This document shows, piece after piece, positions 12,554-58,507 of a DNA stretch of 64,000 nt (its first letter is position 1; the number at the start of each line of letters is the position of its first letter). The stretch is taken from the NCBI GenBank assembly GCA_018920345.1, contig JAHLMN010000005.1, forward strand, positions 12,255 through 76,254, read 5' to 3'. Under the pieces are notes generated by a model. It searched no databases. It saw only the letters and a list, made by a program, of their open reading frames with translations, and had not been told where the DNA came from. Position numbers and translations under genes: made by a program. Origin of the DNA: Candidatus Aenigmatarchaeota archaeon. GTDB taxonomy: Archaea > Aenigmatarchaeota > Aenigmatarchaeia > CG10238-14.

Positions 12554-12557
12554 TTTT

Positions 12558-13637: not shown

Positions 13638-13638
13638 T

Positions 13639-13893: not shown

Positions 13894-13903
13894 TAAAACA
13901 CCT

Positions 13904-18170: not shown

Positions 18171-18211
18171 TGTTATACAATATTGGCCAATCTAAGAAGG
18201 AGGATATCCTC

Positions 18212-40000: not shown

Positions 40001-43000
40001 GTTCTGGTTAGAAAATTTAAACTCAAGCTATGACAACATAACATTAACACCAACAATAGGTGGATGGAGTAGGCTATACAACTATACAATAGATATTGAT
40101 GATCCAGAAAGAGAGGACATAAATTGCAGCTTATTTATAAGCAAGGACAACCAATTGACATGGGAATATAAAGGTAGTTATTTATTGCAAAACGGTTTAG
40201 GTACTTGTTTTGTAACAGTTCATGACTTTACATGCGAAGATATTGGAAAAGAAATATTTTACAAATGGCAAGTTGTTAATGGAGAACCTGCTAACGCATA
40301 TAATACATCTGCATATAAAGGCCCAAACATAACAGAATCATTAGTGCAAGTACAGCTTTCTCAAGGCAATAACACATTTATCAACAGAACATTCCAAACA
40401 AAACCTTTAATTGTCAGAATTTTTGATATAGAAAACCAAAGCTATGTATACAATGCTAACACAAGCTTTTGGATAACATATGATTATTCAAATTATTTAC
40501 TTGTAAACAAAACACAAACAGATTATAATGGTTATGCTCTTTACAGCTTTACACCTAGCTGCATATATCAAGTAGGCACACAAAATTGGAAGGCAGGAAT
40601 TGAAGACGACAAATGCTATTCTGATGTTAACTCAACTGATTATCTAGTTCATGTAAACGGTACATTGTTTAATACAATATTACAACCATCAGGACAAGAA
40701 TTTTTAAGAGGAGATAATATAACAATAAAAGCAAACGTCTCAAGTGATTGCCAAAACGAAGTAATGAATGAATCTGTTTACTTGGAATTAACAACTGTTA
40801 AAGATTTACAAAGTTTGCAATGCACACCTGTATTGAATGAAAACACTGGTGTCTACAATTGCACATTTAATACATCAAGCTATGCAGCGAGATGGTGGAA
40901 TATAACAGCTTACAGCAACAAAATAGGCTATAATAGCAACTATACAACAAAAATAAATGCATTTTGGGTTGAAACAAAACCAGAGTTGAACAACCCAACT
41001 GTTATGCCTTTAGGAGATGGAGGTTGGGGTGAAACATGGATATTTACAGTTAATTTTACAGATGAAGATTTAGATCCAAATACAGTAAGATTATGGGTAA
41101 ATAAATCAAGTGGTTGGTCAAATGCAAATACAACTATTGTTTCAGGTATAAATCAAACAATAACATTTGTTCAAGTTAATCTATTTACATCAAGTGATTA
41201 TATAAACTCATTAAACAATTTAACAAAATTCTATTTCAGAACACAAGATGAAATAATACCAACAGAAAACGATACAGCTGAAACACCACAAATTAACATA
41301 ACATTGCAAAAAGATGATGTTTACATAAATCATACCTATGGCAACAATACAGTTGTTAACAGAAGTGGAGGAAGTTTGTTCTTTAGAGTAAGAATGTGGG
41401 ATACAGATAGAGTTCCTTGGGATGATTTACCTTCTGGCAGCAAAGGAAGATTTTGGTTTACAAAAGATGGTAATACATTTGTAAACACAATAGATAAATT
41501 TGCTAATAGCTCTGGAGAAATAGCACATTTGCAAGCTTTAGATTGCTCATTCCAAGTTGGTCCACAAAAATGGTTTGCTGAATTATATGGCAACACGCCA
41601 TATAAAGATACTAACTCAAGCATCTTTAATTGGACAATTGTTACTGTTGGCTTAACAGCTAACATAACTGATCCTGATGGCATACCGAGATTGAGAGGAA
41701 TAGATGATATTGTTTTGCGTGCAAGAGTAACAGATGATTGTGGTGGTGTGCCTAATGCTACTGTTATATTCCATGTTCCAGATGAAAATTATGATTGTAC
41801 AAACGTGTATTATGAAGGTAACGGATATTACAATTGTACAATACCTGCAGCTACAACAGCAAGCTGGAATACAGGTTGGCACGATGTTACTGTTGATGTT
41901 TCAAAACAATACTATAATGGTACATTTGTAGAAAAGACAAATGCATTTTATTTAGCAACAAAACCTGAAATATTGCTTACACCACCTCCTGCTGCTATAC
42001 CAGAGCAAGATGGTGGTTGGGGTGAGGATTGGTTATTTACAGCTATAACACAAGATACTGATGGTGATAGCTATAATGTATCTTTATGGTTCAATTTAAC
42101 AGGTAATTGGCAATTAGTAGATTCAGTAATAGTTAGTGGTCCACAACAAGTTGATTTTCCAGGTAAAACATTCTCTTGTGATGATATTGGTGAAAGGCAA
42201 TTTATGTTTAAAGTAACAGATGTTTGGGGTTATGAAAATAATTATACATCGCCTTTCACAATTTACAAAGATGATACAATAATCGATTATGTTGCTGGTG
42301 CTGGTACACAGGTTAATAGAGAATATGATGACATAGAGCCAATTATAGTGCAAATATCTGACTTTGATAGAGATGGTATTTATGTAGGAAGTAATGTTAA
42401 TGGATCATTCTTTATAACAACAGATGGATCAAACTATATACAAGCAGCAGCTAACAAAACAGATACCTCTAGTCTATTAAGCTATTACTTTAATCCTAAC
42501 TGTACATTCAATGTAGGCATACAAAAATGGAAAGCAGGTACATATAATGATAGATGTTATAAAGATAATATACCGGATTATGGATTTACAATAGAAATCA
42601 CAGGGCAACTGAAAAACAATTTGATAAAACCAAACTATGGTGAAATAATAGCAGTAGGTAATTTGGTTAATACAACATTCCAAGTTTTAGATGAATGTGG
42701 TTTTGCTGTAAATGATTCTAATGGTAAAATAGAATTTGGCTCGCCTACAAATTCATTTGAGCAGTGTTTACCAATAACAGATCAAGGCAATAGCATCTAC
42801 AATTGTACTTGGAATACAAGCTTCCATATGGGTGGTTATTGGGATATAAGACTAAACAGCAGTAAACAGTACTATTATTCCAATTCAACTTTACTAAATG
42901 ATTGGATTTATTTATTGAATACGCCACCTGCTTATGAAAACCTGTCTGTTACACCTACATCAGAAGGTTGGGGAAGAAACTTCAGCTTTAGTGTTGATGT

Positions 43001-46000
43001 CGATGATTTGCAGTATGATAATGTTACATGCACATTATTTGTTTCAACAGATAATGGGTTAACATGGAAAAACAAAGGCAATTATACTGTTTATGGCGGT
43101 CGTGGCAAATGCATAGTCAATGTTTCTGATTTTGATTGTGGTGATATAGGAAATGACAATAGATATTTGTTCCAATTATATGACGGTACAAATTTAATAA
43201 ACACAACAAACAATACAAATCTAATAATAGAGCCAAACGATGTTGAAATAATATACATTTCTGGCAATAATACATTTGTCAACAGAAGTGGCAATCAATA
43301 TACAACATTTGTTGTACAAGTTCATGATCTAGATGCTAATACTTATCCAAAAGATGTAAACATGTCAGTATTTGTTACAGTCGACAAAACAAACTATTTA
43401 ATAAACTCAACACCTAGATCTGACATCAATGGTATGCTTTACTATAACTTTAATCCATCTTGTACTTTTAATGAATTAGGTATGCAATATTGGCTCATAG
43501 GTGCAGATAACAATGTTTGCTATAAGAGTGTTAACACAACTCAAAATTATACAGTCAATATAATAGGAGACATTTTAAACAGACTAACAACACCAAGTGG
43601 TCAAGACTTTTTAAGAGGAGAAGATAATATTACTTTCACTATAGAAACATCAGATGATTGTGCTGCACCTGTGGATAATGCAAATATTAATTTGACATTA
43701 ATAAGCGAATATGGAAATACATACAGTTGCGAACCAATAGATGAGTTTGGCGGAGGAATTTATTATTGCACTAAAAATACAAGTGGCATGAGAGCAAGAT
43801 GGTATAATGTAAGTGTAAACACGAGCAAAGAATTCTTTAACACAAATGTTTCTTTACATGTAAGACCATTTTTCATTAAAACCATGCCAATAGTGCAGAA
43901 TTTAACTATAACACCAGCACAAGATTGGGGTTGGGGTGAAAAATATATATTTACAGCAAATGTCACTGATGAAGATTTAGACACAGTTTACGTCAATCTA
44001 TATTATACACCAGTCGGTTTTGATGATTGGGTTCAAATAAATTCAACAACAATAACTTCACCATTCAATACAACTGTTACATTAACATATCAAGGATTTA
44101 CATGCTCTGATATAGATTACGAGCAAGAATTTGAATTTACTGTTTTAGACAATAGATCTTACTTGGTTAATAGTACAGTACGGGAGCCATGGAAGAAGAA
44201 ATTCAATTTAACAAAAGATGATGTTCAAATAATTTATGAAGCAGGAAATGGCGAAGAGGTATGGAGAAACGGTACTGACTCAAGAAGATTAAGCATAAGA
44301 GTATATGATACTGATAAAGGCAGTTATCCTGGCTCAGGCTACAACGGCATGTTCTGGGTAACGACAAATTATGCTCAATTTGATATAGGCAAAGCGACAA
44401 CAACAAACTCTTCAAGCTTTTTGAATTATTATTTCACTTCCGAAGCACCTCAGCCTGAGTGCGATTATTTAACAGGTGTGCAAAAATGGAAAGCTGGCAT
44501 ATATGATGATGCATGCTATAAAGATACTAACTCAACCAATTATACAATTACAATTAAATCAGAGTTAAGGCCACAAATAGATTATCCATATGGACAAGGT
44601 TTCATAAGACCAAATCCAGTTCCATTCATTGCAAGAATATATGATGATTGTGGTTTGGTTTCAGGGGCGACAACAACTTGGACAGCATATAATGGACCAA
44701 ACGAATATGGTTGCACCAATAAAACAGAAGCTAATGGCTGGTATAATTGTACATGGCCATCTGCTAACAGACCTTATGGATATTACAATCTTCAATTTGC
44801 TGCTACCAAAAACTATTATGCACCTAATAACACTTATAGAGCAAACGCATACTTCTTAGGCACTCTACCACAACTTTCTGATCCAAAGATACTCAACAAT
44901 CATTATTTAGGTGGATGGGGAGAAACTTATGAATTTTCTGTTAAGCTAACAGATTTTGACTTGAACACAAACAATGTAAGTGTTTGGAAGAGTTTTGACG
45001 CTCAAAATTGGACTCTAGTTGCTTCGCAAAATGTTTCTAATGCTGTTAATCAGCAAATAATCTTCCCAGTAAAATTCAACTGCAGTGACATGGGCTTTAA
45101 CTATTTCTACTTTACTTCTGTTGACCAGTTTGGCTATTCAACAAACACAACAATATTGAATTTCACTTTAGAAGCTGATAATGTCACTTTATCTATTGGT
45201 CTAATAAATACAACTGTTAGAAGAATAGGAGAACAACAAGCTTTGTTGAACTTTACAATTTATGATGATGATTATGGAAGATATGCACCAAATGCTTTAG
45301 GCAACATAAACATTACTTTAGATTATTCTAACTATTCTTATGTCTTCAATTGTACTACTAATGAAAGAGGTCAATGTTATATATATTATAATCCAAACTG
45401 CTCTTCTTTAGCTGGTGTACAAAGTTGGATAGGTAAAACAGTTGATAGCTGTTATCAAATAAAAGAAACTTCACCAACTAGCTTGGCTGTCATAGGCCAA
45501 TTAAACACATCTATTTTGAATCCTTACAATGGACAAATATTGAACAGAAATCAAAATGCTTCACTAAACACAATAATATTAGATGAATGCTTTAATGAAG
45601 TAAGTGGGGCAACAGCTTTATGGTATAATGAAACTTGGAGCAACATAGCTTCTGGTTACAATACTAATTGGATAATACCAACTTATTATGAGCTTGGTCC
45701 AGAAACAATTTATCTAAATGTAAGCAAAACATATTATGATCCAAACAGCAACAAAACAAATGTCTACATATATGGTTGGAGCGGCATTAGCATCTTAAAC
45801 CCACTTGATTCATCATTCTATTTAGCTGGAACATCAGTAAATGTTAAATGCAAAGTTATAGATCTAAACACAACAATGCCTTTACAATCATATATGGTCA
45901 AATTCTATAAGAATGGAACTTTAATGGACACACAACCAACTAATTCAGATGGCGAGGCATTTTGGTTATGGCAAACCATGACAGAAAATTATGGATGGTA

Positions 46001-49000: not shown

Positions 49001-52000
49001 AGATGGAACTACAAACAACGCTACTATGATATTGCAAGCATCAGGTAATGATGATGTCTACAACATAACATTCTCCTGTCTTGATGGTGTAGCTTGTCAA
49101 GACTTTAATGTTTCATTCTATCCAACATTCATAAACAGAATTAATCTAACTGATACAGATTTAGTAAACATTTCAGTTTCAGTGCCAAAACAATATATGA
49201 CAGGAAGATATAATGGAACAATACTAGTAAATGCAACAAACTTTTCCATGGTCGTGCCTCTATATGTAATAGTCCCAATGAACATTTCTTGGTCTCAAAC
49301 ACCTTTAGAGATTAGCAAGACAGTTTTAGGCGATACAAAAGGTGTATTTGGTGAAATAGAATTGCAAAACACAGGCAATGCACCTGTAATTCTAGAAATT
49401 CTCAAATCAGGAAATATTAGCAACTATATATCTTTATCTGAGAGCAGCATAACAATACCAATAGGTCAAACATATTTAATAAAAATAAACTATACAGTTC
49501 CTGTCATAAATCAAGAAAGCAACTTTACAGGTGAAATAATTATAAGAAATACAACAGCTGACCAACAAAAACAAACATCTGTTTCTCTATATGTATTGCC
49601 ATACTATGTAAACATAACAAAACCAACCGAAGTTGAACCTATTGTAAACATAGCATTTGGAGATGTAGTAACATCTTATGTCAATGTAACATATAGTCAA
49701 ACAATAACAGAAAATGTAACATTCTATTTAAGAATTGGAAACGAATCATTCTCACAAGCAATAGTGGTTGATTCATCTCAATTCTTACCTGACATGCAAT
49801 TATGGCAAATAAACTTCACTGCACCTTTATTACCTGAAAACAGAGCTTATGATTTAAATGTAACAGCTTACTATTCAACAAAGAATGTTACAAGAAGTGA
49901 TATAGAATATAAAGCAATAAACTATAGAGATTCTATACCACCAAATATAACATTAATAACGCCACTCAAAGTTCCAGCTGGTTATATAGCTATAATAGAT
50001 GCACTAATATATGAAGAAGGCAATCTAAAGAATGTTTCTGGTATAATAACATATCCAGATAATAGAACAGAGTATGTTAATTTTGCAAGATTAAAGAGAA
50101 CAAACAACACATATTATTATCAACACAATATAACTAATACAACTTTGCTTGGCGTTTACACAATAAATGCAACAACTTGTGACTTTTCAGGTAATTGTGC
50201 TAATGCCTCAGCAGAATTTAGCATATATCCAGCTGCATTATTCCATGGTTATTCAAAAGATTATGAAGCAGCTTCTGAGCCAGTACAATTTGTTAACTTT
50301 AGCTTATATCAACCTGGAGTAGAATTGCTTTTATTCAACATTACACCTAACATGCAAACAGGTTATTATTCTGCTTTAATAGATGCAAGATCATATGACT
50401 TGCAAGCTTCCATATTCAATTCTACTGTTTTAGCCAGAGATGTTGAAATTATACAAGATGTCTTCAATCCAATAATATTTGGTGATATACCATCAGAAAA
50501 AATAAGTCTTGGTGCATTAACAGGTTTGTATGTAGAATCTATATTGAATACAACTAACACAAGCATTAAGATAGATTATTCACCTTATATTAGCAAGGAA
50601 ATATGTAAGATGAATAATGATTGTAGACCAGCATTATTCTTTGAAGAACATCTTTCATTATTTAGATGCAACGCTTGGACAAGAAAGATTGGTTGCTCAG
50701 GTGGTTGGACAAGGCTAGATACAAAAATAAATACTACATTACACTTTGCTGAAGTTGAAGTTATAGGCAATATTTCAGGTGCTTATGCATTAGCTCCATA
50801 TATTTGTGGCGATGGCATATGTGATCATGGTTATGGAGAGTCACCGTTCACATGTCCAAGAGATTGTGAATTACCAAGGCCAGTACCTGTTCCACCAGCA
50901 GCAGGAGGTGGGGGTGCAGGTGGAGGCGGTGGTGGAGGTGCTGCAGGAGGAAGAGAAGTAAGCATATCTGTACCAGGATTGCCTTATTCAATAAAATCAA
51001 CTTTGTTATTCATCACAATAAAGCCAGGTGAGCAAGAAATACACTCTATTGAAATATCAAATAATGAAGACAAAGAGATAGAAGGCCAACTAAAAGTAGA
51101 AGGATTTGCTTGGGAAATGATAATGCTTGAAGAGCCAGTGTTTAAAGTGGCACCAAAAACTACCAAAGTAATAAAAGTTAAAGTCTTTGCCCTACCAACA
51201 ACTCAGCCTGGTATATATACAGCTGATCTAGTCACAACAATTAATGGCGAACAGCATAGAACACCAATAACAATAAAAGTTGAATATGGTCCAGAGCCAC
51301 TATTAGACGTAAAGATAGAAGCATTATCCAAATCAGTGAGACCAGGAGAAGAGGCAAAATTCCAAGTTACAGTGCTAAATATGGGTCAGACCGCGACAGT
51401 AGAAGATATAGTATTGAATTATACATTAAGGAATTTAAGAACAAACGAGATGATTTCTGTTGGGCAAGAAACAATAGCTGTAGAAGATGTTAATACATTC
51501 ATCAAATCCTTCCATATACCAGAAGATACACCAACTGATAGATATGTCATAGAAGTTACAGCAAGCTATTGGTATGGCAAAAAACAAGCTAGAGCAGCTG
51601 CAGCATTTGATGTTGTTTACTTGCCAGCACCATTGATAATATTGAAAGCTCTTGCTACAAGCTGGATCACATATTTAGTAGTCCTTATAATTGCGCCAGC
51701 TGCTGCAGTTGGCTATAGAGCTTACAGATATTATACAACTATGAAGAAGATTAAAGCCAAATACATATTCCCTGTTGATATAAAGAAGTTACCACAACCA
51801 GGACCAAACACAATATTAGTTGGTAAAGTTGCTGAAACAGATATAAATGCTTATACAGATGTCAACAAGCTTGTCATGCATAGCTTAGCAGCAGGAGGTA
51901 CTGGATCTGGTAAAACAGTATCGGCTATGGTTACAGCAGAAGAATTGCTAAAGAGAGATATACCAATAATTGTCTTTGACCCAACAGCTCAATGGACAGG

Positions 52001-52841
52001 CTTCATAAGGCCTTGTAAAGATGAAGAAATGTTTAAGCTATATCCACAATTTGGCCTGAAGAGAGAGGATGCAAGAGGATTCAAGACAAACATAATAATA
52101 GTTAAAGATCCTAACATGAAGCTAAACTTGAAAGAATATATGAAACCGGGTGAAATAACAGTATTTGTTATGAACAAACTTTCCATGGCTGAAATAGATA
52201 CACTAATAAGAGCATCTATACAAGAGATATTCGACATGAACTTGCCAGAATCAAAACAATTAAAGCTTTTAATGGTTTACGATGAAGTTCACAGATTATT
52301 GCCTAAATATGGAGGTAAAGGTGGTTTCGTAGCTCTAGAAAGAGGTGCAAGAGAATTCAGAAAGTGGGGTGTTGGCTTATATATGATATCACAAGTACTT
52401 ATGGACTTTAGAGGAGCAATTAGAGCTAACATTGGTACAGAAATACAAATGAGAACAAAGTACGAAGGTGATATCAATAGAGTAAAGACAAAGTACGGCG
52501 CTGATTATGCTGCTAGGATAACAAAACTTACTACTGGTACTGGATTGGTGCAAAATCCAGAATACAATGAAGGTAAACCATGGTTCGTTGCATTTAGACC
52601 ACTATTGCATGATACACACAGACTAACAGATGAAGAATTAGCTGAATATGATGCAACACAACAAAAGATTAAAGAAGCTGATGATAGAATTGCAAAACTA
52701 AAGGCAAGAAAGATAGATACTTATGATGTTGAGCTAGAGCTTAACATAGCTAAAGATAAGATGAAACAAGGAATGTTTAAGATGGCTCAAACATATCTAG
52801 AATCTGTTGATAGTAGACTAAAGGCATTAGAGAAGAGATAA
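19062..52841 (+). CDS. Giant (11,259 aa) membrane-anchored, heavily N-glycosylatable surface protein with C-terminal cytoplasmic FtsK/HerA-superfamily ATPase domain
   Basis: Single uninterrupted ORF. N-terminal TM segments. Extracellular tandem modules carry conserved GGWGE, QKWK, CYKD and WYN[IV]T motifs. CARDB-like domains near the C-terminus. TM at ATSWITYLVVLIIAPAAAVGY, followed by positively charged residues. Walker A GGTGSGKT, DEVH box, and a RGAREFRKWGVGLYMISQ motif typical of COG0433/DUF87 ATPases. Confidence 0.85.
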   Translation: MSNQKFNKSQVSLALAMPIFFLPILVILPLYLALSLLVLYIAFINLSKKSETGQSQLLASLIVLLITSTLVIATNSTITNNTITGMFTEVMPEEIEKTAQIEVWANTFIETSEENNLIKARLLMDNGSFVSGQEILSYFNDQVQNIQITDNDGYAYFDKNITKLEYKGNQSLYLNPSFIEINYTQTLTRQDFLTVFTDKQFYESNETVNVFGYVSINGSVEVEIIVEKDSQVYKTQTISAENGSYNYNFIVDFTEQGVYTIKVRSIGLINTTAFEYRLPKKLRIEATAFAENIGKTKLKSIIVNGSVFSGDTKIPALIKVKIYNVNGELVLQSQKQIVNNFFFNFTHLPKTYGKYYAEINAETELGNVSETIYFDVLKHLVLKPLIKQEKFNYELGEKIRFQVDAVDEDGNIYSDVNVSAFVVDPDGNVTEANVIADETLPGRFYVELDTEREFRPGVHKLKVRLNYISPNPGEVVVEEEVEFAVGLINVNTDKSIYLPGDKAKITIGVLNNEGKRAYDATVIMNIITPSGEIFTYNSYNGDFSTDEIDGSLALLYDVNETGNYSIDVLAYGSNFSVNYQTFFETRNYVDFDIQRKVKTLIDIGHPNTAEIKIKSNVNANNVTLIEKLPNSFLEITAYGARIERKENETWIIWSFNKLNENDEKTLKYSFTTPDVNPAIYLAGPLTVYYNDSFVFEESKPWTFIVVDVVYYFFKFMPYYYRTNNVTDSVQHIVFNSFDEYRDPVIMCRNHENYSLNVLLTDEADDDNGIIQQWELQIYDGSWKAITTNGVAGFYIMSGETNPVSGSGVGTTDTCTSNFGVAGGDKCEWGEHFRWNITINKTAPLGLTKIRVLPKTRTQGPMFNTNEFYAYIIDCQDINLVRPIKIFGPSGEPIDKISRGHIAKIVIPLANYNSSLKKANISIDIKDSTGNSVDWFIEEGKVQTVSIPGTLTRPNWSEKIVVYTVYVPDEVQATTYSIYVNITSDQVVVQHAKTFTVYTDEGGTSNDIVLFTSTPRKLGANCEDTGGQTTGCGTGHASVCADGDGQPCYKNFREIYVCNYGDYNLTVNITDFTAGSNVYFTTETDGPMAVPQPDYNSTGEVRWYNVKINTSSCFMAEIPYRPTDDTGEETFILQAEWIDPVTGESQMVTNKHISLISATTGTQSPTITTILNRTTVYPNEQLPLRVIAKLGGSEGFAAIDGAATHTVVHYVELYIPPGFERPTNFRVVDNNGATIRATSPDPGYPIGSPEEGWVVKFSPYSIGGTVIRFAAAATQSVGNINHYVDFVTTVLPENNITPGGKVFYTTYVGWMRQNKDYLFKTDRNVLSVLSPFIKTVRYYNTTINNEEKGFPSSNMCQPFSVKLQVFNKGNLPATNFNVTENKYNHSVTHWNDLQFSNFNPSANVYSSNGIIWGNNNINFIPTGKDNSLNYTYIITVPYQTNGTFVFKALTRNMTYIFYDKNYTSLISCGASLIVSEPIIKKGEITNPPIYAGDIFNISSTIYNDGPGNASNVIAIINYTANFDVRNFTNHNSNITYLGNIQSKESKVAHIDYTYTVNTTGVLPGTYTFCIIANATENATKVAACKDVTIQAPPATIELENPLIISKETGSSSGSWGYNFTFNISVRVSNSDTDVSICSYFSKTGNEPWIQVGECQNYPAPGQSIGQWQNFTYEFDPSCNDIGQIVFVKFNATNNAGTSNSTQTTFSITKDKIAFENLIGNNTETRRGKTATLLAIRTRDANGTLVTNLPLTFFVTLDGTIYDSGYSTTTNASAYANYYFQASCSPKYQVGLQKVKIVLANNECYQDNNTESYYNIYTNVTGDIILSFVRPDGSVNYTQEQEIPFLGAVTDDCNDPITATIKYFINQSSSSIECEDISQVGSNAFTCDLPTTINTPMGWYNTSMYANKLQHYNNYTNNLGNPGLFYLFPIKKLLQPSAYPTTEGWGYPNWNFSINVSSGDSENVLLASLYMAQYWPPTYPCPSNICLNQTPLECANCIGSVKYWYRNFTAYEQGIWYYQFKLDGTQTDQVISVTVEKDDTNITYGGEGNLTTVIKDVQPQYLSARVYDLDRQTYNVTSPSATVTFKLYNSNYPDGYIILGSALTNETGYARFLFNITNCYGFYEGTQLWTAEINSSEPYYKPSQMGNGTITIQLPGCQPQIDVEQILTPKEVFSGRNFTVNATITSWVASAENVYATIYLPAGWQVDQAIKSLGTVNVGEHVRISWNVNATTDGVENITVYVNSTNANNDVIYSNKIISYKPITSSIIETLPKIIQPSQSQIFSFLCEAGDYRIANITTNWNGTNTKAKLYSYNGTTWIDIGERYLNETKIEFIPILQHQINSNETGYCLIKIQNIGDNYINISNIQFSAYYNETIKIQDINTTVFGNQITGIEPNQKLNVTVKVANSGQGQTGILWLNITGPTGLVNYSSQNINIPNGISFFNINDIDTSTWQEGTYSIKAFVDYGNKTERIELLELRQIQARIHAYNWMCNSSTEDLSVDIYHPFNDDIQYNISLQVPSGWQYSPVYQLINASTKGNYTANFTITSGNTAEVALINASIVYNYPQEKSLQVTKQIISNSIAILEVIREMPKYVGNDKVFDAQLVIHNKGCAPTTGTTTVSEQISAGWIPANPFIKKNEYGDNIELISTQVDLIKNKVTWNLGQIGVNEYAVLTYQIKAPVDTAREGQFTWNVSWDGKSLRERDPYNVQTANYSNEAHLEFDLEALQQEAYPWVEPRSAQLNRNYEYALKVTNVGDKNATDWTITLYVPEACDVKAIKNSGSWNSTSRKISWSLPEIETYESTYLNFTLNCTIEGKKILIAEALKDERQQIAFTNDTSISCYGQECLIEQPFTFTKPVNARYETLSALNMLVNYDWSGFRNTIGEGKITFTDDLGNYYTLWQNYSHDSTSSSLWQNYTILENEKYVSPTRKIKIEGYADATDDALTNVTINKINYVWNVGKYFQEPQELFIKTKIYTYKPLLENATLYINGNSSRIIGGWGETFNFSVMLRDRFGRDVTVYAWHKKGAGEYSLIGSWTCYSCLEWNQANFSYDYIGSDISSWEFKFNATNADGTSTLNGYPYTVEADDINVDFAYPTYNMTVNRSGTSNFVILVYDRDNQTSPAYLMPGETDEGKGRIYISKFGSNTTFDLSPSLSANSTGHVVRQMSNIIPQWCLVSDYYLGQNYWKGGIEGAVTYKNNATGIYPFMLVGDLSNSYLTQPNNKNFTRGSTINLDGVIKDDCNDVKTDSARFGAEYILTHESTEYRITASLTSASFEIPLDAPLGWYNITMISFSEGIDNDKYWNGTYFKQNAFFLASIPQLNNVQVQPYPKGSWETKPFNFSVYITNIDNETVFARLWFKNQTDDWFLQNTTTCSNCDNYYFLTQHNFTCYNIGEWKAQFNATSATSFSNLTTTITFNITKSDISILHSSGNNTIVNRSDDEPANTRELSVQIFNLVTNKNETAISTSDVYTWVYDGSTYIEQLETANTSHYYFNFNPSCSYQVGKQKWKVNTTSSCYSTNTSEEFYIDIYGSLNNTLILPDGSTNYTQNDQILLLGQITDDCSQPVLNANVRFKLQSGSNIYYCPSSGYITNTTGNYYSCVWDSSGKPGGFYNITMESNKAYHNNGTDYLQNAFFLITPVQLISPQVSYPGDGSWGELHNFTVFVTHYAPANVCLLERTPTTQWQVTECKYVENPQNTFVNFTRYYTCDEYQASALRYFVFNASEPGVAATYSNTTEQSHVLVKNDITITYVYGNESFVNRNGANTTKFILFVNDTDRNQPAYYLLGASVKPQVWFRVHNATSYLVDGYNSTNTSGYVEYNFNPSCSYEAGKFKWQGYTSSDSCYKDYSAEEYNVTIIGDLVANVTYPDGITYFRNLELYIPINGTVIDECNLHYNENATVNFTAISVGFGTEYQCLPVDNAGTGKYNCTLNATTIEEGWYNVRMNATNVQYYNNATILASNKFRVIQQWVPPILENATVLPEQDWGWGENFTFIVNVSDLNAQDINVSLWLSPDNQTWQYISSQICYNCGSKKQLTFYYKGFNCDAIPKYYFKFNASDQYNKTEIAGIEFPITKNDVEVRYVDFAVGNNSVVNRNEYTMLRLRLYDTDNKSYLPANVNGRIFVTTNYVDFDLGNANITDEQGYLSYYFQPNCNYLAGVQKWKGGTYEDACYKDSNITDYLQTTIIGWLNNTIIEPNGDVYYSNQNVTIVTNVSDECFLPITDASVVFMLNHSSNYYQCLDVSSNNGWYNCTWNISNNPSGWYSIRMNSTRQYYNNATTYSEQSFFHQVDPQLKAAFVTPNSTWWGSTFAFKVNVTDDDDYVNVSLWIRCVGGNITPNGCSPDSEFSLANTTNVYDYINNQVMLTKKFADGVNIGNYEWFINASDNYGGFANTGIYTFNVTKRPVYLVYVSGNETNVSRIGANTTLVRVRLFRVGADGGNDEPLNGLSVNFWFTQDGSTWSNTPRSNTTGQSGPGYAEFAFNPSCPATDGGIDFFKTGRQWWNATFSSNTEPGIYYYANTSTNFTLYINSTLNVKIIKPDGEYYPVGTNIYTLANVSDECEYVSQASVQLSVSGESISCSNNTGDANGQYSCILLTSVLGTGDYNEEATATKNYYDSAYTFKPNAFKIRYSPQLSNQQVTPTTEGWGYNFTFNVSAQDSDPGDYLNISLWKSYGGEWIKVEQKNCDSCLSQQTLFFHPIFSCEDYINGPVVRFKFNATDSYGLKAETPNITLTFEKDDVLFTILQGSGATINRSDENDNNAYNFVVIVNDTDRRNVTVNSSEEPDQTITGYFVFSKEPISPTFDSGHSNTTVNGYLSYYFNPDCNYKTGLQYWKVNISGNTCYKDTELTEYQTFNIIGQLKTNLYLPQKYSEFNVTDNITFKFNTYSDCYLQGAEDNGNISVDTSSLRLNETFYCTPIQQELAGNYNCTWDSTGKPQGNYTVNITVEKLNYNFNTSYYIDWFYLKNRMPNVTEMNVTPYSSGWGDTYTYRAEIFDEENDTVTCSLYTNTTGQWVYKGSNTINTPGNCSITVNDFSCDEQGQASFMFEINDTFTRFNTSVVLGPIIAKDNVSVTHILGNNSYVNRSGDQYTTFILNITDTTKKVKAQNANTTIWITTDGSNYQSWFDLKSNETGHVIFKFNPNCSSPTYSLGKQYWLGGVRNDVCYNEANTTENFTVNILGDLQLFINQPKGEKYLRTNYPDGSYVIIKANISDDCLLPITNAQVNFTSEKGLTKKYCNPIYNEGDSNYNCTIDTTTYQAGAWNLTMNASLINYNYNTTTYVYQPNQKGYWVETKPVIEPYLPITPIPAGDGGWGEYWLFRTNVTDEDLDTLTLRLWINSTSEPETWTFKASNNSVSGINQTVFFNVTFTSTFANKHFKFKYNVSENVIDFIQNINETGNGTFYLDKDDTFVQYIEGNNTVVNRSAPISVSNFTMTVRLWDADKYDTTIGNRRIRFWMTTDNAENWVVVSPAALRTNGTGEQPSSAGWGYASNISHPGCNFAVGPQKWKAEIYNEDPYKSSNSSISFFTIIASQLQSKVISPKNKTILKGIEDLVIKGNVSDDCGLVANASVTITVIDSSGTVRGVCKPNDPFNPTLDESNGIYNCTFPASQIYSEDWPTGWYNVTINATKQYYNDSVTYVEQSSFRISTAPELSNAIVTSEEGSNVGGWGELWQFSVDIIDPDNDNSTVYLWLNLTGDWVLYNQTYWRNGIDPSTITFYNTFNCTGLADLGTKFFKFNASDNYGYKDEITNSFTLQPDDTEVYVTATNGQSINREGPNELELSAWILDIDRDYIPVGEGVNTRIRITTNASDPNSWSDYETQTNSSGYTKRIIDPDCTYSVGIQTWRAEVYNDVCYKTAYDQDTITVLGSIYNSLLAPDQYSSYPTGTPVAINYSTTSDCTNVRSDETPYINVTPTIELSLTGANWEQCSPITNNYGIYNCTWNSSYKQPGYWDIKLTSNKQYYNTKQTVYQDWFEIYNANPTNTSTPTVTPTIGGWGTVYNYSVQLLDTDGDPITCVLYTSTDDGNTWVKQGQQLIGSVGTCSFLVKNFNCNATYTDVGSDNWFKFEITDGYHTPFNISSEPGPIIEKNNITITLFAGNNSVVNRTGNDFTILRVFVNDTTKGWPVGNATSGNATIKFNITYNGISYLLEGSNTTYRGNVTYRFNPSCSYYVGDQKWIAYKQGEIGGDQCYNDASSEVFNLTITGNLINVIQKPSGEKYNRGEVNVTIRGNVTTDCPSLDGLISTALVNYTIIHVGTQNTYSCTEGTFTNEGNGYYNCSFDTTSKPTQWYNIRMNSSGFQYYTPNTTTKTNAFFISTIPNLTNPTTTPLSGGWGAPHTFSVYIKDDDNDVNNVSLWIRCVGGGCNPTNFWLAKTTLITASSSPQQVQFTKTDFTPADIGNWEYFFNASDGLNSANTSINTFTITKDTINLTLVAGNEAVINRSTTETATLRVKVFDVDRNVALSPGEPGTGYFYVTTDPNNPNSYVIDKTLTSIEGGSYLTDIFPTLARCTYGVGPQKWKVEFGSDAYQATNSSEFLINITTHEIILQIIGPNNQTFRRARDPIPLVAQANDDCGGLIGATTFFKAYPEYSWTTCNSPTDNLNGTYNCTLYSPETAGLTYYNLEFNATKQYYNSSSNAYKQDAFVLVTNPEIIAYTPVTSDTVYPNGWSEVWNFTASVRDIDQNVYNFEKLNISLWIDFGSGYQLVNSTICSATDNPNCASWKTITFLFRNFTCGDIGIKSYKWNVTDVWNYTNETTATLTVDKSDVIIEFVDQPSYIYRADTSTGKFVYRVYDTDKGQYVTNTSTNTMMWITTDGSTYDNGRFVQINSSGYAVYEFDPDCNYRYGMQKWIAGVYEDACYKNKNLSFTPQFEVRVQLQNNLLVPVYNSIYNVTDMILVRFNTTTECSAEGLIGNATTTISLQSPLGVWETCTPINNEYNGWYNCTWNSTHKKEGYWSIMLNSTKTPYFAQNSTVYSNWFWLENLNSSYDNITLTPTIGGWSRLYNYTIDIDDPEREDINCSLFISKDNQLTWEYKGSYLLQNGLGTCFVTVHDFTCEDIGKEIFYKWQVVNGEPANAYNTSAYKGPNITESLVQVQLSQGNNTFINRTFQTKPLIVRIFDIENQSYVYNANTSFWITYDYSNYLLVNKTQTDYNGYALYSFTPSCIYQVGTQNWKAGIEDDKCYSDVNSTDYLVHVNGTLFNTILQPSGQEFLRGDNITIKANVSSDCQNEVMNESVYLELTTVKDLQSLQCTPVLNENTGVYNCTFNTSSYAARWWNITAYSNKIGYNSNYTTKINAFWVETKPELNNPTVMPLGDGGWGETWIFTVNFTDEDLDPNTVRLWVNKSSGWSNANTTIVSGINQTITFVQVNLFTSSDYINSLNNLTKFYFRTQDEIIPTENDTAETPQINITLQKDDVYINHTYGNNTVVNRSGGSLFFRVRMWDTDRVPWDDLPSGSKGRFWFTKDGNTFVNTIDKFANSSGEIAHLQALDCSFQVGPQKWFAELYGNTPYKDTNSSIFNWTIVTVGLTANITDPDGIPRLRGIDDIVLRARVTDDCGGVPNATVIFHVPDENYDCTNVYYEGNGYYNCTIPAATTASWNTGWHDVTVDVSKQYYNGTFVEKTNAFYLATKPEILLTPPPAAIPEQDGGWGEDWLFTAITQDTDGDSYNVSLWFNLTGNWQLVDSVIVSGPQQVDFPGKTFSCDDIGERQFMFKVTDVWGYENNYTSPFTIYKDDTIIDYVAGAGTQVNREYDDIEPIIVQISDFDRDGIYVGSNVNGSFFITTDGSNYIQAAANKTDTSSLLSYYFNPNCTFNVGIQKWKAGTYNDRCYKDNIPDYGFTIEITGQLKNNLIKPNYGEIIAVGNLVNTTFQVLDECGFAVNDSNGKIEFGSPTNSFEQCLPITDQGNSIYNCTWNTSFHMGGYWDIRLNSSKQYYYSNSTLLNDWIYLLNTPPAYENLSVTPTSEGWGRNFSFSVDVDDLQYDNVTCTLFVSTDNGLTWKNKGNYTVYGGRGKCIVNVSDFDCGDIGNDNRYLFQLYDGTNLINTTNNTNLIIEPNDVEIIYISGNNTFVNRSGNQYTTFVVQVHDLDANTYPKDVNMSVFVTVDKTNYLINSTPRSDINGMLYYNFNPSCTFNELGMQYWLIGADNNVCYKSVNTTQNYTVNIIGDILNRLTTPSGQDFLRGEDNITFTIETSDDCAAPVDNANINLTLISEYGNTYSCEPIDEFGGGIYYCTKNTSGMRARWYNVSVNTSKEFFNTNVSLHVRPFFIKTMPIVQNLTITPAQDWGWGEKYIFTANVTDEDLDTVYVNLYYTPVGFDDWVQINSTTITSPFNTTVTLTYQGFTCSDIDYEQEFEFTVLDNRSYLVNSTVREPWKKKFNLTKDDVQIIYEAGNGEEVWRNGTDSRRLSIRVYDTDKGSYPGSGYNGMFWVTTNYAQFDIGKATTTNSSSFLNYYFTSEAPQPECDYLTGVQKWKAGIYDDACYKDTNSTNYTITIKSELRPQIDYPYGQGFIRPNPVPFIARIYDDCGLVSGATTTWTAYNGPNEYGCTNKTEANGWYNCTWPSANRPYGYYNLQFAATKNYYAPNNTYRANAYFLGTLPQLSDPKILNNHYLGGWGETYEFSVKLTDFDLNTNNVSVWKSFDAQNWTLVASQNVSNAVNQQIIFPVKFNCSDMGFNYFYFTSVDQFGYSTNTTILNFTLEADNVTLSIGLINTTVRRIGEQQALLNFTIYDDDYGRYAPNALGNINITLDYSNYSYVFNCTTNERGQCYIYYNPNCSSLAGVQSWIGKTVDSCYQIKETSPTSLAVIGQLNTSILNPYNGQILNRNQNASLNTIILDECFNEVSGATALWYNETWSNIASGYNTNWIIPTYYELGPETIYLNVSKTYYDPNSNKTNVYIYGWSGISILNPLDSSFYLAGTSVNVKCKVIDLNTTMPLQSYMVKFYKNGTLMDTQPTNSDGEAFWLWQTMTENYGWYNITCSIDDNTVMYYNASIPRATSLVEIKRPLIIQSIDKSSPFVYRNDSFVPNNVNITVRIKDALIGDAENANVTFYNSTGLIDWCLTNSTGQCFITFNPADTITPNIYTIYVNATKVGLQDSVTNTTTIEVKGKLFVNISSPLNNSFWARTDNIALIASVYDEAGQETTATVRWFNETAQVASGENSNWYLIEQTTGNHTLTVNATRDYYDKGEQTIIITISSLSDVQWIYPNDGSIMPYPDAFNTLCRVIDSSTGTPIPNYMVQFWYNYTPGYIFNGTLYTNASGIATNTWQPPQKGQVMFRCNITNDYEKLYTANIKEAFALITIRDIRPPQINNISIQPYAGLEANLNYTNISAVITDDIAVYEAWAQITMPNSTILNLTMPNSGNTYSVLYLPPIGGNYSVRIYARDYPPESNSNNTFAGTFYVNGKTNGIITQPDNIQINGITWTSSESAELTINFTNIGPATAYAVNISFISDPLNSLILNETIHECGTVYNQSSCIFGLLVTVPAATPPSAIKLISNATWRNPDLTKSFTTEDTNFVVISNKIIDILQDNITAIAPHDKLTDLPDITVQSLGNDMITDISITTTGGNISTLCPDCELIIVPNEWGLLEAGASFVSDLRINVPRAQPPGTYWTYIKAASVETSPDLMPLYITVPLNTSWSRSPENFGLILAPPNTSGYIGEITTTSFANIRLILNAYKLQNGSQLFNIYPSAFSLDNGAVRNITVTYNIPSSFISSQGLYYAQIIITNETAMPNEYRTEFWLNVTDIPPIISNVSFVPTEFEMIYESTNISAIIRDNFAVSSAFLNITLPNSTSFTQPMNNTGSYYSTIYTSNIHGYHNISICAIDTQGLQGCTEPTPILVSGETTIRNVFNISKAVVPNITLSNGNEFAITFTTNNTGLSRAFNISVNITTPSNISSNINSTFYSLLLKNQSSSQVVEFNVSAATRPGIYKINFTNNWTNLDQTISSSLDQLEVEVLSNPRLNTTENITVYVPDGTTNNATMILQASGNDDVYNITFSCLDGVACQDFNVSFYPTFINRINLTDTDLVNISVSVPKQYMTGRYNGTILVNATNFSMVVPLYVIVPMNISWSQTPLEISKTVLGDTKGVFGEIELQNTGNAPVILEILKSGNISNYISLSESSITIPIGQTYLIKINYTVPVINQESNFTGEIIIRNTTADQQKQTSVSLYVLPYYVNITKPTEVEPIVNIAFGDVVTSYVNVTYSQTITENVTFYLRIGNESFSQAIVVDSSQFLPDMQLWQINFTAPLLPENRAYDLNVTAYYSTKNVTRSDIEYKAINYRDSIPPNITLITPLKVPAGYIAIIDALIYEEGNLKNVSGIITYPDNRTEYVNFARLKRTNNTYYYQHNITNTTLLGVYTINATTCDFSGNCANASAEFSIYPAALFHGYSKDYEAASEPVQFVNFSLYQPGVELLLFNITPNMQTGYYSALIDARSYDLQASIFNSTVLARDVEIIQDVFNPIIFGDIPSEKISLGALTGLYVESILNTTNTSIKIDYSPYISKEICKMNNDCRPALFFEEHLSLFRCNAWTRKIGCSGGWTRLDTKINTTLHFAEVEVIGNISGAYALAPYICGDGICDHGYGESPFTCPRDCELPRPVPVPPAAGGGGAGGGGGGGAAGGREVSISVPGLPYSIKSTLLFITIKPGEQEIHSIEISNNEDKEIEGQLKVEGFAWEMIMLEEPVFKVAPKTTKVIKVKVFALPTTQPGIYTADLVTTINGEQHRTPITIKVEYGPEPLLDVKIEALSKSVRPGEEAKFQVTVLNMGQTATVEDIVLNYTLRNLRTNEMISVGQETIAVEDVNTFIKSFHIPEDTPTDRYVIEVTASYWYGKKQARAAAAFDVVYLPAPLIILKALATSWITYLVVLIIAPAAAVGYRAYRYYTTMKKIKAKYIFPVDIKKLPQPGPNTILVGKVAETDINAYTDVNKLVMHSLAAGGTGSGKTVSAMVTAEELLKRDIPIIVFDPTAQWTGFIRPCKDEEMFKLYPQFGLKREDARGFKTNIIIVKDPNMKLNLKEYMKPGEITVFVMNKLSMAEIDTLIRASIQEIFDMNLPESKQLKLLMVYDEVHRLLPKYGGKGGFVALERGAREFRKWGVGLYMISQVLMDFRGAIRANIGTEIQMRTKYEGDINRVKTKYGADYAARITKLTTGTGLVQNPEYNEGKPWFVAFRPLLHDTHRLTDEELAEYDATQQKIKEADDRIAKLKARKIDTYDVELELNIAKDKMKQGMFKMAQTYLESVDSRLKALEKR
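24400..45450 (+). repeat. Intragenic array of about 20 diverged tandem ~1-kb (~330-aa) coding modules
   Basis: The conserved QKWK-type motif recurs at about nt 29580, 30565, 31545, 32562, 33558, 34527, 35580, 36597, 37590, 38617, 39612, 40580, 41562, 42522, 43488, 44478 and 45422 (period 944-1053 nt). The GGWGE-type motif recurs with the same period. Repeats are protein-level, not identical DNA. Confidence 0.7.
51760..52838 (+). other. Cytoplasmic P-loop ATPase domain (FtsK/HerA superfamily, COG0433/DUF87-like) of the giant protein
   Basis: Walker A gca gga ggt act gga tct ggt aaa aca at 51891-51917. Walker B / DEAH-like VYDEVH at 52275-52292. ALERGAREFRKWGVGLYMISQVLMDFRGAIRANIGTEIQMR resembles the HerA/DUF87 arginine-finger region. 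Confidence 0.65.
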
Positions 52842-52887: not shown

Positions 52888-54291
52888 ATGGCTGACATTA
52901 ACGATTTAATTTCACAAAAAAAAGAGATAGAAACTCTTCTAAAATCATTAGAAGATGAATATGGAAGAGCTCAAATAAGTGATGCTACTTATAATGAGAT
53001 AAAAAGCAAAAACATGGAAAAATTAAAAAAAATTCAAGAAGAAATAGACAAGCTAGGAGGAAGCGAGCAAGAATCTGTTGAGAAACAAACACCTGTTTCT
53101 GAAGTACAACCACCTCAAGCTGTATCTCAACCCATATCTTCTACAAATTTGGCTATACAGCCTAAAACGACTGCTGATTCAACAAAAATAAAATCTGAAA
53201 TAATGCTGGAAATAAATAAAAAAATAGATACAGAAATAAACAAGCTAAATATTGAGTTAGAAAAGATAAAGGCATTTTTAGATGCTCAAAAAGATTTAAG
53301 AACAGCTACAGATGAAAAATTGCAAAGATTAACAGAAAGTATAGGAGAGCTAAGATCAATGCTTTTCCAAAAAGAGAGTGAAATAGACAAGATGAATGTA
53401 AAGGTTCAAAGGATAGAAGAAGTTTTTAATGATGTAAAGCCAGAGCAATATACAAGAGAGTTGCAGAAGAGAGATAAAGAATTAGCAAATCAAAATTTGC
53501 GTTTAGAGAAGTTAGAAAAAATGAGCTATGATATGGTTAAAGATGTTAATGATATGAGAAATGTTTTTAAGGAAATAGGGAGTGTAGAAAATCTTGTTAA
53601 TGTAAGTAAAAGAATAAACGAAAAGTTCATAAAAATGGAAAATATGCTGAAAGATGTTGAAAAGATATCTGAAAAATTAGAAAAGCATTTTGTTGAGATA
53701 AACAAAAAATTAGAAGAGTTTGAAGAGTACAAAAACAAGCAATTACAAATAGATGGGTTGTCAAAAGATTTGTTAAAGGCAGTAGATGATATAAATATAA
53801 AAATTGGAAAGTTGGCAAGCGAAGAAGAAGTATTTAAACTTAAAGAAATGTTGAACGATTTTACCAAAGATTTAGAAGATGTTAAAAAATCTGTAAAATC
53901 TGGAATACCTTTTGTCGGACCTTTGCCAGAGGAAATACAAAAGTTACAAGAAGAAAAAGACAAAATAAAAACATTTTTAGATTCTATTGACGAGCAATAC
54001 AAATCAAGAGCTATAAAAGAGGAAGAATACAAGAGAATAAGAGAAGCAAACTTGCAAAAGTTAGCTGATATAGATGCTAAAATAAGGGAAAGTATAGAAA
54101 AGATAAAAGGAATACCTAATGTTCAGCCACAACCTATACCACAACCAGTTCAGCAGACACCTCAAATACAAGAGCAACCTCAGCAAGAAGATAAAGCTTC
54201 AAAATTGCTATCAGAATTAAAAGATTTGTACAAAAAAGGTTTGATAAGTGAAAAGGCATATCAAAAGACATCTAGATTACTTATCAAATAG
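52888..54291 (+). CDS. Long coiled-coil protein with three SHOCT-like motifs
   Basis: 467 aa, predominantly heptad-like charged repeats. SHOCT-like motifs: N-terminal LLKSLEDEYGRAQISDATYNEIKSKNMEKL, internal FLDSIDEQYKSRAIKEEEYKRIREANLQKL, C-terminal LLSELKDLYKKGLISEKAYQKTSRLL. Starts 46 nt after the giant gene on the same strand. Confidence 0.65.
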   Translation: MADINDLISQKKEIETLLKSLEDEYGRAQISDATYNEIKSKNMEKLKKIQEEIDKLGGSEQESVEKQTPVSEVQPPQAVSQPISSTNLAIQPKTTADSTKIKSEIMLEINKKIDTEINKLNIELEKIKAFLDAQKDLRTATDEKLQRLTESIGELRSMLFQKESEIDKMNVKVQRIEEVFNDVKPEQYTRELQKRDKELANQNLRLEKLEKMSYDMVKDVNDMRNVFKEIGSVENLVNVSKRINEKFIKMENMLKDVEKISEKLEKHFVEINKKLEEFEEYKNKQLQIDGLSKDLLKAVDDINIKIGKLASEEEVFKLKEMLNDFTKDLEDVKKSVKSGIPFVGPLPEEIQKLQEEKDKIKTFLDSIDEQYKSRAIKEEEYKRIREANLQKLADIDAKIRESIEKIKGIPNVQPQPIPQPVQQTPQIQEQPQQEDKASKLLSELKDLYKKGLISEKAYQKTSRLLIK

Positions 54292-57971: not shown

Positions 57972-58055
57972 GCTGGAGTCGCCTAACCTGGTATGGCACA
58001 GGCCTGGAGAGCCTGCGGGCGAAAGCCCTTGCGTGTTCAAATCACGCCTCCAGCG
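57972..58055 (+). tRNA. tRNA-Ser (anticodon GGA), class II with long variable arm; no encoded CCA
   Basis: Hand-folded. Acceptor GCUGGAG/CUCCAGC (7 bp). D-stem GCC/GGC with a GG-containing loop. Anticodon stem CAGGC/GCCUG with loop CUGGAGA. Variable arm GGGC-GAAA-GCCC. T-arm GCGUG-UUCAAAU-CACGC. Discriminator G. A T-rich tract follows. Confidence 0.85.
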
Positions 58056-58098
58056 CTTTTTCTTTTATATTTTCAGTTTAATTATTAAATTTTTGAAA

Positions 58099-58173
58099 GG
58101 GGCAGTAGTATAGCTTGGTCTAGTATTCCAGCTTGGGGTGCTGGCGACCCGAGTTCAAATCTCGGCTGCCCCA
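58099..58173 (+). tRNA. tRNA-Pro (anticodon GGG); no encoded CCA
   Basis: Hand-folded. Acceptor GGGGCAG/CUGCCCC. Anticodon stem CCAGC/GCUGG with loop UUGGGGU. T-arm CCGAG-UUCAAAU-CUCGG. Discriminator A. The D-stem has two G-U pairs. Confidence 0.8.
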
Positions 58174-58507
58174 CTTATTAATATTAAAAATATTTAGAAG
58201 CAAAAGCAATCTGATATAGATTGATTATAAATAAAAACCTAAGGCCATGCTCTATAATTAGATGAGTTTGGTTTTTTAAAAAAGAATTTTATTAAAAATA
58301 ATTAACAAAATTAGATTTAACAAGTTAAAACTATTTTTAATTTTATAAATAACATTCTATACAAAGATAAAAATTATTATTTTTATTAATCAAGAAATAA
58401 ATTATATATTAAAAATCTATAACAAAATTTTTATTAATAATAATTTTAGCGATAATAATTTTATTTTCAGTAAAAAAATTAAAAATTTTTCTATTTAAAA
58501 AACAATT

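Follow-up and report, generated by a model that had tools for sequence, protein, structure and literature searches.

The stretch of DNA analyzed here, a 64,000-nucleotide window on a contig of a Candidatus Aenigmatarchaeota archaeon (JAHLMN010000005.1, assembly GCA_018920345.1), encodes in a single open reading frame (ORF; 19062-52841, including the stop codon at 52839-52841) a giant protein of 11,259 amino acids (aa). We find good support for this protein being the representative, in Aenigmatarchaeota, of the SPEARE giant surface proteins of DPANN archaea. It consists of a ~10,780-aa adhesin-type ectodomain rich in glycosylation sequons and repeats, followed by a poly-Gly linker and a conserved base module of ~630 aa, the latter comprising two beta-sandwich domains, one transmembrane (TM) helix, a HerA-clade P-loop ATPase and a helical tail. 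The ORF runs for 33.8 kb without interruption at a window G+C content of 30.7%, and in DNA this rich in A+T an open frame of such length is impossible by chance. All window features given below lie on the plus strand. Taken as a whole, SPEARE identity, this anatomy and a mechanism built on a ring ATPase are very probably the best explanation of the locus.

Hamm et al. 2019 (PMC6642349) described the SPEARE proteins, which in Nanohaloarchaeota reach 8,553 aa, as mostly extracytoplasmic, with a TM helix near the C-terminus, at least one laminin-G domain in all members and a conserved intracellular part read as a type III restriction enzyme. The same study listed similar sequences in Woesearchaeota, Aenigmarchaeota, Micrarchaeota and Altiarchaeales, and found by mass spectrometry that Ca. 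Nanohaloarchaeum (Nha.) antarcticus makes its SPEARE protein, with peptides from the ectodomain and those from the TM and cytoplasmic part in separate size fractions of the gel. From the closed genomes of cultivated nanohaloarchaea, La Cono et al. 2023 (PMC10266531) reported proteins 9,409 and 8,880 aa long, with a signal peptide, ~75 immunoglobulin (Ig)-like domains, a TM helix, a "VirB4/TraG-like ATPase" in the cytosol and a tip formed by a coiled coil; they dismissed the endonuclease reading and proposed an effector "straw" resembling a type IV secretion system (T4SS).

When window positions 50901-52838 are compared by BLASTP with the C-terminus of the type SPEARE protein, NAR1_1133 of Nha. 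antarcticus (5,998 aa; machine-read from Fig. S18 of the supplementary information of Hamm 2019, so that a few residues may be wrong), the match has an E value of 2e-122 and 36% identity over 626 columns. The alignment is colinear across the last 611 residues of the window protein, taking in both beta-sandwich domains, the TM helix, the ATPase and the tail. The original prediction, made from this DNA alone, knew of no characterized system with this architecture; the architecture is in fact that published for SPEARE (PMC6642349, PMC10266531). Shared between the two are the giant adhesin-type ectodomain, the poly-Gly run, which stands at the equivalent place in the Nha. antarcticus protein, the two juxtamembrane beta-sandwich domains, the single C-terminal TM helix and a conserved cytoplasmic P-loop ATPase with a coiled-coil tip, and in both the cytoplasmic part is the most conserved. 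Further members include SVXNc_0300 of Ca. Nanohalococcus occultus (9,409 aa) and a protein of the EX4484-52 metagenome-assembled genome (MAG; 12,127 aa).

Differences from the nanohaloarchaeal proteins are also apparent. The window protein comes from Aenigmatarchaeota, is longer than any cultivated example, and has an ectodomain made of ~18 repeats of 330 aa together with MG2, filamin and NPCBM_assoc-type domains. Downstream of its gene lies a coiled-coil protein, and not a second VirB4-like ATPase such as that reported to adjoin the giant gene in nanohaloarchaea (La Cono 2023, PMC10266531). No earlier description was found in the literature on DUF87 in DPANN archaea, on giant proteins with FtsK, or in the 2014 archaeal "dark matter" paper. 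Relative to the published SPEARE accounts, and as far as we have found, the following are apparently new: (I) the proximity of the ATPase to HerA together with the loss of the HAS barrel, (II) a base module delimited by poly-Gly that also occurs as a separate protein, and (III) a near-universal coiled-coil partner gene and a family scale of at least 583 stretches.

The C-terminal domain is an FtsK/HerA-superfamily (DUF87/HerA-like) ATPase, an assignment proposed in the original prediction and on which Pfam, PDB sequence matches and a fold search now agree. Its HerA-clade, RecA-like core (51765-52622) contains Walker A (GGTGSGKT, 51894-51917), Walker B (LLMVYDEVH, 52266-52292) and the ERGAREFRKWG and SQ motifs, ALERGAREFRKWGVGLYMISQ (52332-52394), and is followed by a helical or coiled-coil tail of ~72 aa (52623-52838; model helices H332-357, H363-377 and H381-400). 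Each of the elements quoted beforehand, namely the TM helix, the positive cluster, Walker A, the VYDEVH box and ALERGAREFRKWGVGLYMISQ, is present in the C-terminal translation. The domain thus carries the hallmarks of the superfamily: a RecA-like core, Walker A, a Walker B with the DE pair, and a conserved Arg and Gln after it.

Among Pfam models, DUF87 ("Helicase HerA, central domain") scores 39.5 bits against a cut-off of 23.2 and HerA_C 32.7 bits against a cut-off of 22. FtsK_SpoIIIE reaches 18.5 bits against a cut-off of 24, over just 42 residues around the P-loop; DEAD, AAA_10 and TrwB_AAD_bind stay below their cut-offs, and T4SS-DNA_transf spans the P-loop only. The NCBIfam equivalogs (CedD, CedB, HerA, TraB, TraD and TraC) give short partial matches of 12-30 bits against cut-offs of 366-970, with CedB at 17 versus 700, CedD at 29.8 versus 600, TraB at 19.9 versus 800 and HerA at 22-27 versus 800-970. 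The likeness to HerA/VirB4/CedB-type translocation ATPases proposed earlier therefore holds at the level of the superfamily and fails for CedB, which is no closer than other members. Membership in CedB, CedD, TraB, FtsK or VirB4 was considered and rejected, as the family models all fall far short of their cut-offs.

Another weak Pfam match bears on the published annotation. ResIII is detected at 17.9 bits (E 0.0031; cut-off 22.5), over the generic P-loop region only. It repeats the match from which Hamm 2019 (PMC6642349) took the cytoplasmic domain to be a type III restriction endonuclease, an enzyme that would destroy incoming DNA. We consider that reading extremely improbable and reject it, given a ResIII match that is sub-threshold and confined to the P-loop while DUF87 and HerA_C exceed their cut-offs. 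Furthermore, no nuclease domain is detected, the fold search places HerA, DptH and VirB4 far above any restriction helicase, and La Cono 2023 (PMC10266531) reached the same conclusion against it.

Structural comparison refines the placement. An AlphaFold2 model of the monomer (residues 10,859-11,259, from a 41-sequence alignment) has a predicted local distance difference test score (pLDDT) of 90.7 and a predicted template modeling score (pTM) of 0.86, and is thus confident; in it, a long TM helix leads into an alpha/beta core of the RecA type, behind which three helices form the tail. In the fold search HerA and DptH are structurally closer than VirB4, and the top PDB sequence matches are HerA chains, with the ERGAREFRKWGVG...SQ block aligned over the KEGRKYGIG...SQ block of HerA. 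Within the superfamily the domain is nearest to HerA; it is not, however, a bona fide HerA. HerA, an archaeal and bacterial double-stranded DNA translocase-helicase (PDB: 4d2i, 7f6d, 8wiv), has a HAS-barrel N-domain that the window ATPase is without: only ~55 residues separate the TM helix from Walker A, and the HAS barrel is consequently absent. The model shows two short strands in this stretch (E59-65 and E71-75). HerA-NurA systems have an adjacent NurA nuclease and often also Mre11/Rad50; unlike HerA, the window protein is membrane-anchored and no NurA partner is found among the scanned ORFs.

The remaining motors of the superfamily differ in other ways. VirB4 has a PF03135 (CagE/TrbE/VirB) N-domain, for which the window protein gives no match, and the coupling proteins (VirD4-TrwB) have an all-alpha domain that it does not possess; from VirB4, VirD4-TrwB and TcpA alike, the window ATPase is further set apart by its fusion to a ~1.2-MDa ectodomain. 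FtsK/SpoIIIE, Streptomyces TraB and crenarchaeal CedB/CedD are, like the window ATPase, membrane-anchored members of the superfamily, and they move polymers. Unlike FtsK, the window protein has no gamma (KOPS/SRS-reading) domain, and its C-terminus is a helical tail rather than a winged helix. Unlike the Ced system, there is no CedA in the scanned neighborhood, and the CedB and CedD matches are partial and lie in the P-loop region. EccC of the type VII EccC/EssC systems has three tandem ATPase domains and dedicated partners, whereas the window protein has a single ATPase domain.

The giant protein reaches this ATPase through a single C-terminal TM helix (residues 10,861-10,885; 51642-51716), modeled as one long helix (H10-40) and containing the predicted TM sequence ATSWITYLVVLIIAPAAAVGY at 51654-51716 (residues 10,865-10,885). 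A positive-inside cluster, RAYRYYTTMKKIKAKY, follows (51717-51764), such that six Lys or Arg residues are found in the 20 aa after the helix and two in the 20 aa before it. The C-terminal domain (375 aa) has no N-x-S/T sequon and one Cys; the ectodomain, in contrast, has 180 Cys and 513 sequons, versus 189±11 in composition-preserving shuffles. Because of the Lys/Arg bias, the sequons, the Cys content and the need of an ATPase for cytoplasmic ATP, we place the ATPase inside the cell and residues 80-10,860 outside. The predicted topology, a cytoplasmic ATPase behind one TM helix, is thereby upheld.

A Kyte-Doolittle scan of the whole giant protein finds just three hydrophobic segments (residues 9-48, 54-79 and 10,857-10,884), leaving ~10,780 aa between membrane anchors. 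The first two define an N-terminal hydrophobic anchor or signal region (residues 1-79; 19062-19298) of two or three hydrophobic helices, with Lys/Arg at the very start and in the loop of residues 47-56, and acidic residues after the last hydrophobic segment. If this region is uncleaved, the ectodomain would be a giant loop held at both ends; TM helices at both ends have been reported for the 12,127-aa EX4484-52 protein.

The ectodomain itself (residues 80-10,860; 19299-51641) is of the beta-sandwich adhesin type and enriched in sequons. Pfam finds scattered MG2, Filamin, NPCBM_assoc, DUF11 and Big_7 domains, most of the ectodomain being without a match, and detects no protease or toxin-like region. 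Laminin_G gives no Pfam match at E<=0.001 in 1,000-aa ectodomain chunks; Hamm 2019 used structure-based methods. Roughly half of the ectodomain is a tandem array of ~18 divergent repeats of ~330 aa (residues ~2,900-8,900; 27759-45761, boundaries approximate), as revealed by self-BLASTP of 300-aa fragments, in which offsets cluster at 320-340, 650-670 and 970-1000 aa. A stretch at residues ~1,500-2,000 is related to these repeats. Identity between copies is 27-29%, and the repeats are therefore old and not an artefact of assembly.

The conserved base module begins at the poly-Gly/Ala linker AAGGGGAGGGGGGGAAGG (residues 10,613-10,630; 50898-50951), a candidate hinge or processing site. Between linker and membrane lies the juxtamembrane ectodomain of about two beta-sandwich domains (residues 10,631-10,860; 50952-51641), which aligns with the SPEARE C-terminus, gives a weak MG2 match and recurs in a stand-alone 699-aa Woesearchaeota protein (P0093).

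To place the protein in its family, we searched by pattern through a single genome for each GTDB species and obtained at least 583 stretches encoding a relative. Locus counts given here rest on the best ~80 of these, with flanks that reach 10 kb upstream, beyond which the N-termini of the orthologues lie. Among the best 80, MAGs named to phylum are mostly Aenigmatarchaeota, the others being Micrarchaeota, Nanoarchaeia/Woesearchaeota, Nanohalarchaeota and Altiarchaeota, and many are labeled just "uncultured archaeon"; the named MAGs carry the same phylum labels as the SPEARE relatives of Hamm 2019. The best match, at 94% identity, is an Aenigmatarchaeota MAG, in line with the earlier proposal of a small episymbiotic archaeon insofar as the host is a DPANN archaeon. 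A 95%-identical protein (P0001) considered as RLG14629.1, a SPEARE match listed by Hamm, turned out to be MCX8179663.1. We also note a 3.5-kb contig binned as "Candidatus Heimdallarchaeota" (JAEOTG010000200.1) that encodes a 68%-identical ATPase together with the partner gene; it is probably a mis-binned DPANN contig and not an Asgard occurrence.

The fusion of ATPase and giant ectodomain is a conserved property of the family. In 72 of the 80 loci, no stop closes the ATPase frame upstream before the fetched DNA ends; where a full 10-kb flank is available, the open stretch amounts to 3,333 codons or more. Most of the exceptions either have very large ORFs immediately in front or are interrupted by one in-frame stop. 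Since the entries of a word-indexed protein search were all fragments of 700 aa or less, protein sizes were taken from the genome loci and from an exhaustive phmmer search of 1.84 billion cluster representatives. The latter yielded 369 clusters at E<=1e-30, whose representatives are as long as 7,665 aa and typically carry the ATPase at their very C-terminal end. In those that match the Walker A pattern, a median of 54 residues separates the end of the TM helix from Walker A, and in none does a TM helix follow the ATPase.

These data also bear on whether the gene is an artefact, in which a separate ATPase gene was joined to a giant ORF by an assembly or sequencing error. Split versions do occur in some genomes, as separate genes in one Woesearchaeota locus (L001) and through an in-frame stop in the loci L035 and L028. 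The same in-frame fusion is nevertheless found in 72 of 80 independent assemblies, in cluster representatives of up to 7,665 aa and in closed nanohaloarchaeal genomes (PMC10266531). An error of this kind is hardly credible, and we reject it on the strength of the loci with an open frame.

Hardly any variation is seen at the catalytic residues. Across 269 homologues (model numbering), the Walker A K93 is present in 262 of 262, D216 in 268 and E217 in 267 of 269, and R239, R242 and Q253 in every one. Homologous giant genes thus keep both the ATPase and its motifs, as the earlier reading of the sequence required. The ectodomain diverges faster: in comparison with the Aenigmatarchaeota locus L003, identity is 74.6% across the last 3,734 aa of the giant protein, with 64-76% for the ectodomain and 95% for the ATPase.

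In some relatives, the base module is encoded on its own. Short family members of ~650-730 aa, to which no giant ectodomain is fused, still keep the ATPase, and in Woesearchaeota the module occurs as the 699-aa protein P0093 with its own signal peptide, matched in content by a ~630-aa block of the giant protein. In L001 (GCA_021734865.1, positions 1-14187), a 15,808-aa gene is followed by the 699-aa base-module ATPase gene with a 4-bp overlap. Further downstream in that locus lie a 696-aa protein and the start of a gene of more than 4,143 aa, a split system larger than that of the window.

Such short members are relevant to the idea that the motor serves its own protein, exporting, folding, anchoring, retracting or quality-controlling the ectodomain with no other cargo. 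VirB4-type ATPases act on subunits of their own apparatus in T4SS pilus biogenesis, which offers a precedent. Fusion couples motor and ectodomain 1:1, and where the two are separately encoded the small ectodomain of the module could dock the giant chain. However, the ~650-730-aa members keep the ATPase with no giant ectodomain fused to it, and an ATPase that is synthesized only after the rest of its chain cannot drive the export of that chain. We regard this idea as unlikely.

The ATPase also travels with a partner. Directly downstream of the giant gene, a 467-aa cytoplasmic coiled-coil protein with SHOCT-like end motifs is encoded (52888-54291). Of 82 related loci, 80 have a homologue by tblastn directly downstream of the ATPase, and by ORF clustering it is present in 75 of 83, on the same strand and at a median offset of +35 nucleotides. 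Pfam and NCBIfam give weak coiled-coil-type matches only; those to Rad50/SMC reach 25 bits against cut-offs of at least 700 and cover the coiled coil only. A Rosetta-stone search for the partner fused after the ATPase returned one weak match (E 2e-7) among 146 representatives and lends no support to such fusions.

SHOCT-like motifs are seen at both ends of the partner, ISDATYNEIKSKNMEKLKKI and KKGLISEKAYQKTSRLLIK (Pfam SHOCT_2 E 0.004), and a similar motif, KEGIISENAYNELRKKNVEKLKHLGG, ends the cytoplasmic tail of a surface protein of ~1,950-2,100 aa in related loci, which suggests that the two have a docking motif in common. This ~1,950-aa type-I membrane surface protein, which has NPCBM_assoc/MG2 domains and a C-terminal TM helix, comes after the coiled-coil gene in 39 of 83 loci (L010-L081, ~1.5-9 kb downstream of the ATPase). 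A MinD/ParA-type ATPase (~255 aa) is found in 29 of 83 related loci and a ~155-aa membrane protein with a HEIGH motif in 19 of 83; neither of these, nor the ~1,950-aa surface protein, is encoded within the window.

How might the ATPase work? Beyond the observations above, we infer a ring, a channel, a substrate and a direction in which it is transported. The solved relatives HerA, VirB4, TrwB/VirD4, FtsK and EccC are hexamers. By analogy with every solved relative, the window ATPase probably assembles into a ring at the inner face of the symbiont membrane. Such a ring would bring several giant ectodomains, with their TM helices, together in a single apparatus where the symbiont touches its host, and the energy of ATP hydrolysis would drive a polymer (DNA or protein) through this apparatus or along it; we lean toward a polymer taken up from the host. 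At its most general, a ring translocase at the base of an adhesin appears likely from these relatives. As for the substrate, DNA would be favored by the nearest structural relatives, HerA and DptH, and a protein or effector by the published T4SS analogy.

Each of these substrates corresponds to a more specific proposal. In the T4SS-like effector straw (La Cono 2023), Ig-like domains bind the host and a VirB4/TraG-like ATPase secretes effectors from symbiont to host. For the window protein this is doubtful, since HerA and DptH are structurally closer than VirB4, PF03135 is without a match, and neither a second paralogue of the ATPase (tblastn and Pfam, in the window) nor a VirB3, VirB6, VirB8, VirD4 or pilin-type neighbor (among the scanned ORFs) is found. 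The recurrent neighbors in related loci are instead the coiled-coil protein, the ~1,950-aa surface protein and the MinD/ParA ATPase.

Alternatively, the ring could pump host DNA into the symbiont, as CedB, FtsK or TraB pump DNA, and so supply nucleotides and genes. This is conceivable, although the probability we give it is low and only slightly above that of the effector straw: the DNA-translocase models CedB, CedD and FtsK_SpoIIIE remain far below their cut-offs at the scores given above, and no gamma-type DNA-recognition domain, CedA-like channel or nuclease is found in the scanned neighborhood.

Several points weigh against a ring ATPase that moves a polymer across the membrane, whatever its substrate. 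One TM helix per subunit would form a narrow bundle unless N-terminal hydrophobic segments or other proteins add to the pore, and the HAS barrel, which forms part of the HerA channel, is missing. Furthermore, the structure model is of a monomer only, and the topology rests on composition-based arguments. Finally, neither a nuclease, relaxase, pilin or polytopic channel protein, nor a T4SS, Ced or NurA component (VirB3, VirB6, VirB8, VirD4 and pilin being those of the T4SS), is found among the scanned window ORFs, and thus neither DNA nor protein transport has support from gene context.

Upstream, the giant gene overlaps by 8 nucleotides with a gene for a 299-aa protein (18170-19069) that combines a winged helix-turn-helix (Pfam HTH_11, residues 17-57), one TM helix and a small ectodomain, the latter with a Ser/Thr/Asn-rich extracellular stretch and a weak A2M/MG-like beta-sandwich. 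Judged by its sequence, it is a putative transcription regulator that is tethered to the membrane and bears a sensor domain at the surface, and it might control the giant gene. The two proteins have in common the N-terminal pattern ETGQxQ-TM-...ITGxFxEV. It reads ETGQAQ-IFALAILLFFIPVLIIA-...ITGSFSEV in the upstream protein (residues ~86-122; 18425-18535) and ETGQSQ-LLASLIVLLITSTLVIA-...ITGMFTEV in the giant protein (residues 51-90; 19212-19331), and may be a lineage-specific signal, anchor or processing motif. In one related locus (L070, ~10090-10210), the ~2,100-aa downstream surface protein has "...TYTGMFSSV" after its N-terminal helix.

Farther upstream, a 297-aa protein with no Pfam match (14830-15723) is a loosely linked neighbor; in eight related loci, its homologues (26-36% identity) are encoded on the opposite strand, at a distance of ~9-10 kb downstream of the ATPase. 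The rest of the surroundings consists of housekeeping genes. At 1835-13637 are found a class I Ile/Leu/Val-type tRNA synthetase, an alanyl-tRNA synthetase (AlaRS), an M29 peptidase, a tRNA-editing domain protein, a cobalamin adenosyltransferase and a Trp/Tyr-type tRNA synthetase, and at 57972-58174 a tRNA-Ser(GGA) beside a tRNA-Pro(GGG); a THUMP protein is also encoded. The giant gene therefore resides in an ordinary chromosomal context and not in an obvious mobile element.

Giant surface proteins make up 3-4% of some DPANN genomes and are foremost among the candidates for the means by which these ultra-small archaea attach to their hosts and exploit them. The biology is important, yet the locus will not surprise a specialist: it is a family member in a phylum where SPEARE relatives had already been noted, and it reveals no new kind of system. 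Tentatively, the base module and its coiled-coil partner, joined in many lineages by the ~1,950-aa surface protein and the MinD/ParA ATPase, may form the core of a DPANN-wide trans-envelope transport organelle that is evolutionarily distinct from the T4SS, the type VII secretion system, Ced and FtsK and carries DNA or protein of the host over the symbiont membrane where the two cells touch; the giant ectodomains would then be interchangeable, host-specific adaptors.

In sum, the SPEARE design, with a HerA-clade motor that appears active from its sequence, is the rule in Aenigmatarchaeota and neighboring phyla and not a nanohaloarchaeal oddity. Constraint is much stronger on the ATPase than on the ectodomain, and the ATPase travels with its coiled-coil partner gene. 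A compact soluble domain and a two-gene core are thereby defined, the study of which would bear on what passes between DPANN cells and their hosts.

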